This document shows, piece after piece, positions 8,713 through 38,384 of a DNA stretch of 64,000 nucleotides. A program made the translations under genes and the position numbers. The notes under the pieces are model-generated. The model was given only the letters and a program-made list of their open reading frames with translations. It was not told the origin of the DNA and made no database searches. The stretch's first letter is position 1, and every line of letters begins with the position of its first letter. Source of the DNA: Longimicrobiales bacterium (GTDB lineage: Bacteria; Gemmatimonadota; Gemmatimonadetes; Longimicrobiales; Gaopeijiaceae); assembly GCA_965197725.1 (NCBI GenBank), contig CBDANQ010000053.1, positions 1 through 64,000 of the forward strand, read 5' to 3'.

Positions 8713-8741
8713 TTGACAGAGCGAGCCCACGTGTTCATCGT
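8713..8741 (+). promoter_or_regulatory. Putative promoter (TTGACA-17-CATCGT) just upstream of Cys-rich leader ORF
   Basis: Perfect -35; weak -10; ATG 10 nt downstream, possibly a leaderless or very short leader. Confidence 0.5.
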
Positions 8742-8750
8742 TCCTTCCTC

Positions 8751-8858
8751 ATGAGTCAACGTACGTCAATCCTGAACGAGTCGTCACCGATGCCTGCAAG
8801 CTGTTGTGGTCAGACCTGTGGTTGTCCGAGCCGAAAGGGGCGTCGGAAGGTGGACTGA
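8751..8858 (+). CDS. Putative Cys-rich attenuator leader peptide 1 (MSQRTSILNESSPMPASCCGQTCGCPSRKGRRKVD)
   Basis: 35-aa ORF with four TGT Cys codons, followed by a terminator; upstream of cysH. Confidence 0.65.
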   Translation: MSQRTSILNESSPMPASCCGQTCGCPSRKGRRKVD

Positions 8859-8884
8859 CAGGCATCTGTCATACGGATCCGCCC

Positions 8885-8923
8885 AAAGGCGCCCCCCAGG
8901 TTGGGTGGCGCCTTTTTCTTTTT
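8885..8923 (+). terminator. Intrinsic terminator/attenuator 1
   Basis: AAAGGCGCC-C-CCCA-GGT-TGGG-T-GGCGCCTTT followed by a T-rich tail. Confidence 0.8.
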
Positions 8924-9050
8924 GCGACTGGGATCCAAGAAGAGACGCTGACCGGAGGGGTCGGGGGTCTGTCTCGATGGCTGGGGCCTGGGCAAGACCG
9001 AAACCTGAACAAAGAACGGAGCGATGCAGGACGCGCCAAGATGGCTTCGC

Positions 9051-9149
9051 ATGGAGGTGGGGGTGACCGCGCTTGTGATCCGAGGACACAACTCTGCCGG
9101 AACATGGTTCGCACTCTTTTCGGGCCGATGTTGTTGCGCGTGTAGCTGA
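9051..9149 (+). CDS. Putative Cys-rich leader peptide 2 (ends ...FSGRCCCACS; start could be 9024, 9051 or 9063)
   Basis: TGT TGT TGC GCG TGT AGC TGA at 9129-9149; GGAGG precedes GTG 9063. Confidence 0.5.
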   Translation: MEVGVTALVIRGHNSAGTWFALFSGRCCCACS

Positions 9150-9216
9150 CGCGATCCAGCCCACAGAGGTGAGCGGCCCAACCATCCATCAATAGGCGCA
9201 GACGACGCGAGCGGAT

Positions 9217-9247
9217 GACCGCGACCCTCACCCGGTCGCGGTTTTTT
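9217..9247 (+). terminator. Intrinsic terminator/attenuator 2
   Basis: ACCGCGACC-CTCACCC-GGTCGCGGT then TTTTT. Confidence 0.8.
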
Positions 9248-9407
9248 GTGCCTCGCGGAAGGAATCAGATCAGATCGACATCAGAGAAGACCACACGGGG
9301 AGCAACGTGAGACCCCTCAGGCGGGGGCTCGAGCTGATGATGAATCTCACATGGGAAAGAGGAGAAGAGCGGTGAGCAGGGAAGGCCAAGTCCGAAAGCT
9401 GAGCCAG

Positions 9408-10133
9408 ATGAGTCGAGGGACTGCGGCCGGACCCGGTAATCCGGGGAGGCCCAGTGCCGCCACGCTGAACGGCCTGAATCACCGACTAGGACAAGCGGAC
9501 GTGAACGAGATCCTCCGTTGGGCAATCGACACCTTCGAGGAGGGGAAGTTGGCGATCACGACGTCCTTCGGCCCGGCGGGTATTGTGATTCTACATCATC
9601 TTCAATCCGTTGCGCCCGACCTCCCCGTCGTATTCATCGACACGCTTCATCACTTCCCGGAGACCCTGGAACTCGTCGAGCGAATCCGGCAGCGCATGGA
9701 CCTCAATCTGCAGATCTATAGACCGGCTGTGAGCCGGGCCATGTTCGAAACGCTCTACGGTCGCGATCTGCACCGCTCGGACGTGGATCGTTACCAGCGT
9801 CTGACGAAGCAGGAGCCCGCTCTGCGAGCCGCCCGCCCTCTCGAAGCGTGGATCACTGGACGGCGTCGTGAGCAGGCGTCGACGCGGGCGGCACTGCCGA
9901 TCCTGGAGGCCGGAGAACGACTGATCAAGATCAACCCACTGGCTACCTGGAGTCTCGACCAGGTCTGGGCATATCTCATCCTCCACGAGCTCCCCTACAA
10001 CCCGCTTCACGACCAAGGCTACGCCAGTATCGGCGACGAGCCCTTGACGTCCCGCGTCAGCCCTGGCGAGCCGGAGCGAGCCGGACGCTGGCGGGGATCG
10101 GAACGCCTGGAGTGTGGAATGCACGAGGTATGA
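9408..10133 (+). CDS. cysH: Phosphoadenylyl-sulfate (PAPS) reductase
   Basis: TSFG, FIDTLHHFPET, WITGRRREQ, KINPLATW, YNPLHDQGYASIGD, ERAGRW, ECGMH; lacks the CC Fe-S motif of APS reductases. Confidence 0.9.
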   Translation: MSRGTAAGPGNPGRPSAATLNGLNHRLGQADVNEILRWAIDTFEEGKLAITTSFGPAGIVILHHLQSVAPDLPVVFIDTLHHFPETLELVERIRQRMDLNLQIYRPAVSRAMFETLYGRDLHRSDVDRYQRLTKQEPALRAARPLEAWITGRRREQASTRAALPILEAGERLIKINPLATWSLDQVWAYLILHELPYNPLHDQGYASIGDEPLTSRVSPGEPERAGRWRGSERLECGMHEV

Positions 10134-10233
10134 AGACACAGTCCCGGACATACTCCCGCGCCGCCGAGTTAGCGCTTTCTATCCGGTCTACCTGGACCTA
10201 CGGAAACGACAGAGTCTGGTGATCGGCGGTTGA
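10114..10233 (+). pseudogene. cysG: N-terminal fragment of siroheme synthase / precorrin-2 dehydrogenase
   Basis: FYPVYLDLRKRQSLVIGG then TGA. Confidence 0.6.
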
Positions 10234-10345
10234 CGTCCACCACCGCGGTGCCTGCGGCGGCGGGGTCGTGCTCATGGGGCTCAGAGCTCTCGGAAGAATC
10301 TGCCAGAGGCTCCAGAGGGAAGGCGCCTCTGCAGAGACACCCTAG

Positions 10346-10426
10346 CTCGCCACGCCCGCGAACTGGCAGCAGGGCGACGACGTGATCATTTGTCCCTCGG
10401 TCTCCGACGAGGTGGCGAAGGAGAGG
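10346..10426 (+). pseudogene. C-terminal fragment of 1-Cys peroxiredoxin (Prx6 type)
   Basis: LATPANWQQGDDVIICPSVSDEVAKER with no start, preceded by TAG. Confidence 0.65.
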
Positions 10427-10453
10427 CCGGGGGCGGAGAGGCTACGCGGGAAA

Positions 10454-11809
10454 CTAGATTCCCAGAAGGCGCAAGAAGTCGTTCGAGAGGGCCCAGAGCA
10501 TGATGCCGACGACGACTAGAAAGCCGACGTTGCTCCATCGTAGCTTCTGCTCGAGCGAAAGCCCTCGCCCGCCGCGGACCGCTTCGATTCCCAGGAAGAC
10601 CAGATGGCCACCGTCCAGAACGGGGATCGGGAGTAGGTTCAGAACTGCCAGATTAATGCTGAACAGTGCCATGAAGCGGAGGAACGTGTTCATGCCTGCG
10701 GCCGCCGCCTGGCCGGACGCCTCACCGATCGTGACGATGCTGCCCATCGAGCGCGGCGAGATGCCACCGGTGACGAGATCTCTGAGGAAGCCGAGAATCA
10801 TTCGGGTGACGGCGACGGTCTCCCCGTAGCCGAACACGAAGGCGTCCCCGAAGGAGACGGAACGGTAGACCACGTCACCAACTGGCCGGTAAATCCCCGC
10901 CTTCCCCAAAAGTGCTACGGAGCCGTCCAGGCCCCGCCCTTCCGCAGACTCGAGCGTGACCGGACGCATGATCTCCTGCTCGTCGCGCACGATCCCGAGT
11001 TCGACACGCTCGTCGGGTCGAGCTTCGATCAGCCGCACAAACTCGTACCAGTGCTCGACCGGGGTACCCGACACCGAGACGATCCGGTCCCCGGCCTCGA
11101 GCCCCGCCATGTCCGCGGGTGAACCCGGCTCCACTGCGCCGACGCCGGCCTCGAACCAACTCCCCACTGAACCGACGAGATCGCGCCGGTCGGACTCCTC
11201 CCCAGGGATGCGGATCTCGATGAGCATGCGAGGCTCGGCCAGCTCGATCTCGATCGGGCCGGGGTCGGACCGGTAGAGGCCACGCCGCACGTCGCCCCAG
11301 CCGTGGACCTCGGAATCCCCGATTCGTACGAAGCGACTTCCAGCCGGGATTCCCGCGAGATCTCCCGTCCCCGCCGGCAGGGTGCCAGCGCTGACGTGGC
11401 CTACGCGCGTCGTGCTCAGCTCGGCCATGCCCCACTTCGCGGCAACGAAAGTGTACACGCCGAATGCGAAGAACATGTTCATGATCACGCCCGCGGAGAT
11501 CACGAACGCTCTCGCCCAAATCGGCTGCGCGTCGAAGTCACTCGGACCCGGCTCACGGTGCGCCTCGCTTCCACCCTCGAGCCGCTCCATCGCCTCGTCG
11601 TCCATGCCGCCCATCTTCACGTACCCGCCCAGCGGGATCGCGCTCACTACGTATTCGGTCTCACCCCGCTTCACCCCGAAGATCTTGGGGCCCAGCCCGA
11701 TCGAAAACCGTTGCACCGCCACTCCCACCGCCTTCGCTGCGGCAAAGTGGCCCAGCTCGTGCACGAAGATCAGCACACCGAGCACGATGACTGTTGCCAA
11801 TAAAGTCAT
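10454..11809 (-). CDS. rseP: RIP metalloprotease RseP
   Basis: HELGH, PLGGYVKM, PDZ domain, NLLPIPVLDGGH. Confidence 0.95.
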   Translation of the reverse strand: MTLLATVIVLGVLIFVHELGHFAAAKAVGVAVQRFSIGLGPKIFGVKRGETEYVVSAIPLGGYVKMGGMDDEAMERLEGGSEAHREPGPSDFDAQPIWARAFVISAGVIMNMFFAFGVYTFVAAKWGMAELSTTRVGHVSAGTLPAGTGDLAGIPAGSRFVRIGDSEVHGWGDVRRGLYRSDPGPIEIELAEPRMLIEIRIPGEESDRRDLVGSVGSWFEAGVGAVEPGSPADMAGLEAGDRIVSVSGTPVEHWYEFVRLIEARPDERVELGIVRDEQEIMRPVTLESAEGRGLDGSVALLGKAGIYRPVGDVVYRSVSFGDAFVFGYGETVAVTRMILGFLRDLVTGGISPRSMGSIVTIGEASGQAAAAGMNTFLRFMALFSINLAVLNLLPIPVLDGGHLVFLGIEAVRGGRGLSLEQKLRWSNVGFLVVVGIMLWALSNDFLRLLGI

Positions 11810-12978: not shown

Positions 12979-13862
12979 CGTGTGCTCCCTAGCAGAACTA
13001 GTATCGCGTACGCCATCGGAAGCGTGATGATGAGGGCGTCGAGCCGGTCGAGTACGCCCCCGTGCCCCGGGAAGATCGCGCCCGAATTCTTTACTCCGGC
13101 CTCCCGTTTCAGCAGCGACTCAGCGAAGTCTCCGACCTGGGCTCCCACTCCTAGTGCGGCGCCCACAACAGCCGCTACTGCCACACTTCTGATCGGCACC
13201 CCGGGCAAATATGGTGCAGCCACGAGATGCCATAACCCTGCTCCGGCCGCCGCGCCGATCAGGCCCGCCACCGATCCGAGCCAACTCTTCTTGGGGCTGA
13301 TCGATGGCAGAATCTTGGTTCGACCCCAGGCGGTCCCAGCGAAGAACGCGACTGAGTCCCCGATCCAGGTGCTCGTCAGGGGTAGTGCCACTACTAGCAA
13401 ACCGATCCCCGCCTTCGGAATCACCTCTCCCCACGCATCGATCGTTGGCAGCTCGCGCAGCATGGGTACGAACGCCAGCGATAAACCGACATAGAGCATA
13501 CCGAAGAGCGTGAGGGCGATGGACGAGAGGGGCTGGCGGTCCGCTCCCCGCACGATCGCCGCGAGCAACGCGAAGAACGCGACCGCTACCACGACCGTCA
13601 GGGCCCAAGGGGCAAAGGCCGTGAAGCTGGGGTATGCCGCGGCGAGGAGTACGAGCCCGGCCGCGGCGGCGGCGCCGAGCCAACGGAACGGGCGCGTGCC
13701 TTTTTGCTCGGCCAAGCGGTACGTCTCCATCGCTCCAAGTCCGGCGAGTATCGCGACGGGTACAGCCAACACCCAGCCGCCCATGTAAAGCAGCCCAAGA
13801 ACTACCGGGACTCCGACGATCGCAACGGCCCACCGCCGCCCGAGCTCGTTCCCTGAGTTCAC
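12975..13862 (-). CDS. cdsA: Phosphatidate cytidylyltransferase
   Basis: ISPKKSW, GDFAESLLKR, PGHGGVLDRLD. Confidence 0.95.
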   Translation of the reverse strand: MNSGNELGRRWAVAIVGVPVVLGLLYMGGWVLAVPVAILAGLGAMETYRLAEQKGTRPFRWLGAAAAAGLVLLAAAYPSFTAFAPWALTVVVAVAFFALLAAIVRGADRQPLSSIALTLFGMLYVGLSLAFVPMLRELPTIDAWGEVIPKAGIGLLVVALPLTSTWIGDSVAFFAGTAWGRTKILPSISPKKSWLGSVAGLIGAAAGAGLWHLVAAPYLPGVPIRSVAVAAVVGAALGVGAQVGDFAESLLKREAGVKNSGAIFPGHGGVLDRLDALIITLPMAYAILVLLGSTR

Positions 13863-25223: not shown

Positions 25224-25381
25224 TACGGGTGGTCCAGGTCTCCTGGCTCGAGGCCGACTGCCCGCCTTCCCAGGGATCAACCCCAGTGGCTCCGGTGAAC
25301 AGCCGTTCCGACTACGTCAGACCTCTCACAGTGGCGGGGCCGCGCCGGAATCTCACCGGCTTCCGATATGGCCCACCCGTA
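25224..25381 (-). promoter_or_regulatory. Cobalamin riboswitch
   Basis: GGAAGCCGGTGAGATTCCGG, GCCCCGCCACTGTGA, GCCACTG...GGGAAGG, AGCCAGGAGACCTG B12 box; closing stem TACGGGTGG/CCACCCGTA. Confidence 0.92.
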
Positions 25382-38311: not shown

Positions 38312-38384
38312 CTGGGGCGGGTGGGTTCGAACCACCAACCTCCTGGTTAACAGCCAGGCGCTCTGCCGATTGAGCTACACCCCA
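38312..38384 (-). tRNA. tRNA-Asn(GTT)
   Basis: TGGGGTG acceptor stem, TAGCTCAATCGGCAGAGC D-arm, CCTGG-CTGTTAA-CCAGG anticodon arm, GTTCGAA T-loop. Confidence 0.96.

Follow-up and report, generated by a model that had tools for sequence, protein, structure and literature searches.

Candidate cysteine-sensing attenuators in series upstream of cysH in a Longimicrobiales bacterium, and their relatives in Gemmatimonadota

Classical attenuators read by a translating ribosome include trpL of E. coli and hisL of Salmonella, as well as those of thr, leu, ilv and phe. As described in the available text of Canestrari et al. (10.1101/834739), leader-peptide attenuators of this kind have a short ORF rich in end-product codons, alternative 1:2, 2:3 and 3:4 hairpins, and a terminator before the biosynthetic operon. 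Cysteine is a gap among these terminator/antiterminator systems, and the one tested Cys leader acts, according to the same available text (10.1101/834739), on translation: the polycysteine leaderless sORF attenuators of mycobacteria mask a Shine-Dalgarno (SD) sequence and are without terminators. Mycobacterial Cys leaders had been predicted earlier, as seen in the accessible part of Seliverstov et al. 2005 (PMC1262725). The one terminator-type Cys case that we found in print is uORFC-8-2, before cysS in Rhodobacterales, which in the accessible part of Brewer et al. 2021 (PMC8632094) is a predicted Cys-sensing ribosome-mediated attenuator with a U-tailed hairpin. Two short-ORF attenuators in one leader are described for Salmonella mgtCBR, where they sense ATP and proline (Lee and Groisman 2012, PMC3641672, available portion). 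The available parts of PMC2965389, PMC8079986 and PMC13236596 contain no further terminator-type Cys case, and in the literature outside subscription journals and supplements we found no terminator-type Cys attenuator for sulfate assimilation. Within that same literature we also found no report for Gemmatimonadota, in agreement with the preliminary description of this DNA, which knew of none for the lineage.

Here we analyse the region upstream of cysH in a stretch of 64,000 nucleotides from a Longimicrobiales bacterium (the window, meaning the whole of that stretch). Its first leader (leader 1) and the leader family to which it belongs are very probably classical trp/his-type, ribosome-mediated transcription attenuators that sense charged tRNA-Cys. 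As in trpL and hisL, an ORF with end-product codons, alternative hairpins and an intrinsic terminator (T1 and T2 in the window) precede the first gene; unlike them, the Gemmatimonadota leaders would sense cysteine for sulfate assimilation, have no Rfam match, often stand in series and carry the antiterminator in the 3' part of the ORF. A uORF with Cys codons and a U-tailed hairpin are common to these leaders and uORFC-8-2, and the two are set apart by description: in the accessible part of PMC8632094 the latter has two tandem Cys codons, mostly UGC, and belongs to cysS in Alphaproteobacteria, whereas the cysH leaders have 3-9 Cys, mostly UGU, and belong to sulfate uptake and reduction in Gemmatimonadota. 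With the mycobacterial leaders, as far as the available text of 10.1101/834739 describes them, they share Cys-codon runs in a short upstream ORF, Cys-tRNA sensing and sulfur genes at several loci, but the Gemmatimonadota leaders have intrinsic terminators and 8-27 codons from the Cys run to the stop. The two mgtCBR attenuators respond, in the portion of PMC3641672 available, to two different signals, whereas both units of the cysH tandem carry Cys codons.

Leader 1 and its conservation ahead of cysH

Leader 1 consists of the following elements, all on the forward strand of the window.

8713-8741, + strand: likely sigma-70-type promoter judged from sequence, with -35 TTGACA at 8713-8718, 17 nt, and a weak -10 CATCGT at 8736-8741
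8751-8858, + strand: leader ORF 1, 35 codons from ATG 8751 or 22 from the conserved ATG 8790, with stop TGA at 8856-8858
8826-8846, + strand: predicted protector (1:2) hairpin, 8826-8832 with 8839-8846 by folding, which would sequester the antiterminator strand without a ribosome
8837-8895, + strand: predicted antiterminator (2:3), 8837-8844 (GGGGCGTC) with 8888-8895 (GGCGCCCC) by folding
8885-8923, + strand: intrinsic terminator T1 (3:4), a U-tailed hairpin of -21.4 kcal/mol, 26 nt past the leader 1 stop

The TTGACA box named in the preliminary description is present; the -10 box that follows fits only three of six positions, and a promoter scan called no site, the putative leader 1 promoter lying below its threshold. 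In a second genome of the genus (G002) the arrangement is TTGACA-17-CAGAAT, with a distance identical to the window's, and many relatives have TTGAC-like boxes about 90-165 nt 5' of the first Cys codon. The 35-codon ORF also exists as it had been described. Its peptide ends in SCCGQTCGCPSRKGRRKVD, and four Cys codons, all TGT, lie within 8 codons (8802, 8805, 8817 and 8823). Its start at 8751, which a check for a leaderless start placed 9 nt 3' of the putative -10 box, is not kept in G002; there an in-frame stop directly precedes the ATG equivalent to 8790, so that the conserved leader comprises 22 codons from 8790. No SD was found in the window 5' of either ATG 8751 or ATG 8790. The leader 1 region matches G002 at 85% over 134 nt, and the ORF aligns with G002 and with the first leaders of genera g10, g71 and g83.

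The strong terminator of the preliminary description is in place, and the complementarity it reported between GGGGCGTC and GGCGCCCC holds at both sites. According to folding, antiterminator 1 is closed by an inner hairpin (8849-8861/8866-8883) that holds the leader stop codon, and together with it extends from 8835 to 8899 at -33.4 kcal/mol. The leader region gave no Rfam match at the gathering score (four chance matches, E 1.3-7.3), and no Rfam riboswitch or T-box, the SAM riboswitch included, matched at the window or at the leaders of 20 related loci. A loose detector run over the whole 3.0 Mb genome returned 21 Cys-tail-plus-hairpin matches, among which a compact hairpin with a U tract was seen by eye only in the window's two. 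Elsewhere, on the minus strand, the window holds a cobalamin riboswitch (25238-25364) and a tRNA (38312-38384).

In the mechanism that we propose, two attenuator units would act in series 5' of cysH. When Cys-tRNA is scarce, a ribosome would stall on the Cys codons of leader 1 and cover the protector strand (8826-8832); this would free 8837-8844, which would pair with 8888-8895 while the terminator 3' arm was still to be transcribed, and the polymerase would read through. When Cys-tRNA is plentiful, the ribosome would reach the stop at 8856 and cover 8837-8868, the terminator would form and the transcript would end near 8920. Folding predicts all three hairpins and the way in which they depend on where the ribosome stands, and we infer the translation of the leader, its coupling to transcription, the starvation response and a tuning of sensitivity by UGU.

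Conservation was examined in relatives. Searches detected cysH in 66 of 401 genomes from the order and in 54 of 401 drawn from the phylum. With up to 8 kb upstream, the order set comprised 69 loci (the window and 68 fetched, of which 67 were all the non-window matches of the order search and one came from another search), and for other orders 40 of 48 cysH matches were fetched. A leader was called where an ORF tail with at least three Cys in nine codons was followed by a U-tailed hairpin. Such a Cys-rich ORF and terminator lie 5' of cysH operons at 58 of the 69 loci in the order, and 5' of cysH at 35 of the 40 loci from other orders of the class, one of these 35 looking spurious. Thus the conservation of Cys codons in orthologous leaders, fixed beforehand as the point on which the preliminary description could fail, was borne out. 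A stricter detector found leaders at 57/69 and 33/40 loci, against 1 and 6 on the opposite strand, where six of the seven matches look like further Cys leaders of divergent genes. At L116, L225, L226, L229, L231 and L232, further Cys leaders with terminators were seen upstream of cysH, facing away from it.

Eleven loci in the order were negative; by eye, four of them (L090, L109, L110, L120) show a leader with 2-5 Cys and a hairpin, and in the remaining seven cysH is inside an operon or near a contig end. Curation by eye reduced 83 detector rows by 12 (2 duplicates in genome G270, and 10 taken to be either spurious or a second frame over a terminator already counted) to 71 leaders in 57 loci, which span 27 of 31 genera and all three families and come from relatives that are not independent. 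Among named CysH records a leader match was obtained for 9 of 19, which may overlap with the fetched genomes and were kept out of the totals; a metagenome scan gave a leader in 5 of 53 loci, the rest being mostly distant cysH genes or short contigs, and no credible leader was seen at five cyanobacterial cysH loci. At 52-59% identity, the ten best named relatives of CysH carry the labels Gemmatimonadota, Gemmatimonadetes, Gemmatimonadales or Gemmatimonas, which points to that phylum. In one Acidobacteriota record (L033) a Cys/Met leader and terminator lie about 1170 nt upstream of cysH, and the element is therefore not confined to Gemmatimonadota.

A scan of 52 proteins encoded behind the leaders identified sulfite reductase, ATP sulfurylase, APS kinase, CysD/CysNC, TauE and a sulfate ABC transporter, along with SLC13-type transporters, rhodanese, ThiF/ThiS/JAB and siroheme enzymes (siroheme synthase). 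Since the layout recurs across the class, it is likely that the ribosome switches sulfur assimilation on only when cysteine is short.

The second unit and the state of the cysH locus

Three elements go beyond the preliminary description: the protector hairpin at 8826-8846, the published prediction uORFC-8-2, and a second Cys leader with its terminator (9063-9250). The features downstream of T1 are as follows.

9053-9149, + strand: leader ORF 2, with SD-like GGAGGT at 9053-9058 and an in-frame GTG at 9063 or 9075 (also ATG at 9024 and 9051), ending in GRCCCACS
9166-9229, + strand: predicted antiterminator 2, GAGG 9166-9169 with CCTC 9226-9229 and GCGG 9173-9176 with CCGC 9219-9222
9217-9250, + strand: intrinsic terminator T2, -17.7 kcal/mol
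9372-10133, + strand: cysH, phosphoadenylyl-sulfate reductase (NF002537 and TIGR00434 above cut-off; C-terminal ECGMH)
10130-10455, + strand: gene stubs after cysH, seen in three-frame translation, with pieces at about 10177-10233 and 10340-10455

The Cys codons of leader 2 occupy 9129-9137 and 9141-9143, and its stop (9147-9149) follows the last Cys at a distance of one codon, where the other 70 curated leaders have 8-27. An out-of-frame TAG (9193-9195) lies 21 nt 5' of T2, the usual stop-terminator spacing, and the shifted frame that leads to it reads PTEVSGPTIHQ at its end, in register with PREGRVPTSR in homologues. A one-base frameshift, either genuine or introduced in assembly, would probably explain the early stop. 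Of 23 sequencing runs listed, two contained at least half of the words, both from one sample; run X1, which may itself be the source, agrees with the stretch throughout, coverage by X2 is interrupted at 9068-9176, and a further run, X3, has short related pieces only (8993-9096 and 9155-9232). A selenocysteine reading of the leader 2 TGA, conceivable because tRNA-Sec is present, was provisionally set aside: the next stop would fall on the terminator, unlike in the other 70 leaders.

Two leaders are present in 10 of the 57 curated loci, 45-252 nt apart, and in none of the ten tandems was a TTGAC box found between unit 1 and unit 2; the two units of the window likewise have none between them. Leader 1 matches best G002 and the first leaders of g71/g10, and leader 2, when aligned with 69 leaders, has as its four best local matches the second leaders of g10/g71 tandems (scores of 48.5-57 against a median of 26.5); the tandem was therefore probably inherited. 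This homology of leader 2 is visible only through alignment against curated leaders: a DNA search of 100 family genomes gave only chance-level matches of 18-56 nt. G002 lacks unit 2 at its cysH locus. In the window's genome, unit 2 probably represents a second checkpoint, inherited but now damaged or altered. In one relative (G270:C1; L089 and L092) the cysH locus with tandem leaders is present twice, about 26 kb apart, with identical leaders.

The start of cysH is placed at GTG 9372, putatively, from its likeness to the G002 gene, with which it is 85-88% identical. Past the stop only the first ~20 nt are common to the two genomes, and the sequences then differ. Judging by motifs, we tentatively take the stub at about 10177-10233 to be like the start of siroheme synthase and that at about 10340-10455 to be like a peroxiredoxin C-terminus. 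The sequence of this region suggests operon breakup in the genus. Contigs of RNA run X21 cover 9353-9552 only, outside the leader. The sat-cysC loci of the window's genome, G001 and G002 showed no Cys leader.

With stubs after cysH and no sulfite reductase found, the locus may be decaying. This bears on a reading in which the family is a real attenuator and the locus itself is a relic in the window's genome, T2 being nearly constitutive or the whole unit irrelevant; we consider it unlikely, though deserving of serious weight. Besides the stubs and the apparent frameshift of leader 2, it can draw on the fact that neither sulfite reductase nor cysG was found in the window's genome and that cysH was not found in three of the four other genomes of the genus. 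Against it, leader 1 and cysH are conserved with G002, whose sulfite reductase has its own Cys leader; the cysH gene itself is intact, the genome has ATP sulfurylase and APS kinase (on C61), and by folding antiterminator 2 is able to form. Moreover, the assembly is 88.9% complete and is without even a tRNA-Cys: ARAGORN found tRNA-Sec and no tRNA-Cys, probably owing to assembly incompleteness.

Reading frame, codon choice and folding

In 60 of the 71 leaders the Cys run is preceded, at most 15 codons away and without an intervening stop, by an in-frame ATG, compared with 0 and 5 in the other frames; the presence of an ATG played no part in leader selection, and the bias indirectly favours translation of the leader. 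An in-frame stop lies 5-50 nt 5' of the terminator in 70/71, against 23 and 25 in the other frames, a difference partly built into the selection, and the stop-to-terminator spacing is near 24 nt. Of the 339 Cys codons in the leaders, 237 (70%) are TGT and 102 are TGC, whereas in long ORFs of the same loci TGT makes up 232/1078 (21.5%); the TGT share exceeds 0.25 in 24 of 27 genera. The tRNA-Cys reads UGU by wobble. The preliminary description had called the four TGT codons unexpected. In long ORFs of the window's genome TGT accounts for 603 of 2381 Cys codons (0.253), Cys being 0.6% of codons, so that four of four are unlikely by chance (0.253^4 = 0.004). Across the leaders it is the bias that is conserved, and not the all-TGT pattern as such, which occurs in only 13 of 71.

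Outside the Cys run the peptide residues differ between genera, with no conserved sequence core across them. Together, the in-frame ATG, the TGT bias and the variable peptide speak against both a peptide product and a repeat bound by a protein. Within the Cys clusters of the 71 curated leaders, Met accounts for 31 of the 153 residues other than Cys, which may reflect sensing of Met together with Cys or the presence of additional start codons.

The variable residues also weigh on the possibility that the short ORFs are genes for small Cys-rich peptides, either metal-binding or modified, with a terminator that just ends their transcript and cysH expressed from another promoter. CC and CxC clusters do resemble those of metal-binding peptides, and conserved in-frame starts and strong terminators would be expected as well; yet such peptides would need neither the TGT bias, nor the ~24 nt stop-terminator spacing, nor the complementarity to the terminator arm. 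In genome G312 a one-base insertion past the antiterminator alters the C-terminus, and the ten tandems have no TTGAC box between their units. We regard this possibility as highly improbable. Nor is there much to be said for a UGU-rich tract serving as a site for an RNA-binding regulator, with TRAP-like logic, or as part of a ligand-sensing RNA, with the ORF incidental. The strong UGU bias and an SD that is weak or absent at many leaders agree with this reading, which we think very improbable given the frame dependence of the ATG (60/71 vs 0 and 5), the 102 TGC codons among 339, the lack of a conserved core across genera and the absence of an Rfam riboswitch or T-box match.

The attenuator reading was examined by folding. 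The transcript was cut before the terminator 3' arm, and the ribosome footprint was assumed to be the A-site codon plus 9 nt. The median pairing energy gained by the terminator 5' arm was -12.9 kcal/mol with the ribosome on Cys codons, -7.9 in the naked transcript and -4.6 with the ribosome on the stop. A set of 91 control terminators, matched for distance, had a median of -7.4 kcal/mol; comparison with this set is the fairer one, since a ribosome on the stop leaves less RNA free to pair and weakens pairing by construction. By genus, pairing at the stall was stronger than naked in 25/27 and stronger than at the stop in 26/27; by leader, naked pairing was weaker than stalled in 55 of 71. For leader 1 of the window the values were -10.2 to -16.1 stalled, -11.3 naked and -6.3 at the stop. 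For leader 1, and likewise in 65 of the 71 leaders, folding predicts an antiterminator that excludes the terminator, is free at the stall and is covered at the stop; leader 2 fails, with no difference between stall (-9.1) and stop (-9.3).

In leader 1 the 2:3 pairing is the predicted minimum-energy fold with the ribosome on any of the three Cys codons tested and is gone with the ribosome on the stop, consistent with the proposal of the preliminary description that stalling would free the antiterminator and arrival at the stop would mask it. In 59 of 71 leaders, and in 23 of 27 genera, pairing with the leader's own terminator arm is stronger than with most arms taken from other genera. When the antiterminator duplex was compared with base shuffles, p<0.05 was reached in only 23/71 leaders (p=0.13 for leader 1 and p=0.28 for leader 2 of the window), so that much of the pairing rests on G-richness. 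In 11 alignable leaders, 86.4% of 66 cells are paired in the 2:3 helix and 98.7% of 77 in the 1:2 helix; the covariation suggested as a check in the preliminary description did not appear, both helices showing one-sided changes only, at a level that did not exceed the shuffle control, and no two-sided compensatory change. With the whole terminator present at equilibrium, the terminator forms in all five states tested, and the switch must therefore be kinetic and co-transcriptional. In the naked leader 1 prefix antiterminator 2:3 beats protector 1:2, which makes the role of the protector uncertain.

Translational or Rho-dependent control, as proposed for actinobacterial poly-Cys leaders, has on its side that the only tested Cys leader masks an SD sequence (10.1101/834739, available text), but is scarcely credible here, where the mycobacterial pattern of a Cys tract pairing with the gene SD and no terminator is not seen, a G+C hairpin with a U tract stands 3' of each curated leader, and the ~450 nt between T1 and the cysH start are too great a distance for direct SD masking.

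Wider bearing, further leaders and relays

If leader 1 and its relatives are ribosome-mediated attenuators, they bear on more than one question. About 100 natural leaders, unlike in sequence and like in geometry, would form a test set for Cys-tRNA charging as the driver of intrinsic termination; the same set bears on the choice of UGU for sensitivity and on the response curve of two same-signal attenuators in series. They would also provide a first regulatory model for sulfur metabolism in the mostly uncultured phylum Gemmatimonadota, and the Cys leader could act as a marker for finding new sulfur genes behind it. With middling confidence, we further propose that sulfur assimilation in a whole class of Gemmatimonadota is organised as a cysteine regulon read by the ribosome. 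It would be made of classical transcription attenuators, several per genome, UGU-tuned, partly Met-reading, and stacked in series (10/57 loci, with relay-linked double terminators in addition), which would make the response to a single signal sharper.

Other leaders were also observed. In the window's genome (G000:C23, ATG 17929 on the minus strand; L270 1855-1929), a leader MHRHARGYRYYWFAPRRGARSPRV and a terminator precede a DAHP synthase gene. This leader, with its YRYYWF run, is likely an aromatic amino-acid attenuator, and the genome thus appears to use leader-peptide attenuation elsewhere. G002 has another Cys leader, distinct from its first, on the minus strand of G002:C3 (L267); it ends in MIRMIACTCTCQCCVCLPTPGAVQGA, with its stop near 13285, and stands with a terminator before cysG and a sulfite/nitrite reductase gene. 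Separate Cys leaders at further genes occur at L103 and L117 (two leaders each), L067 and L097; their settings are a sulfate ABC transporter with cysD-cysNC, a PLP-enzyme/ThiS operon, and both sides of a JAB-domain gene.

A second terminator 70-80 nt past the stop of the first leader was seen at L079, L086, L087, L089, L091, L098, L101 and L107 (and L104). In eight of these nine double-terminator loci, a stalled ribosome is predicted to free the 3' arm of terminator 1 for pairing with the 5' arm of terminator 2, a relay pairing that also appears in the stop-state fold in three of the eight.
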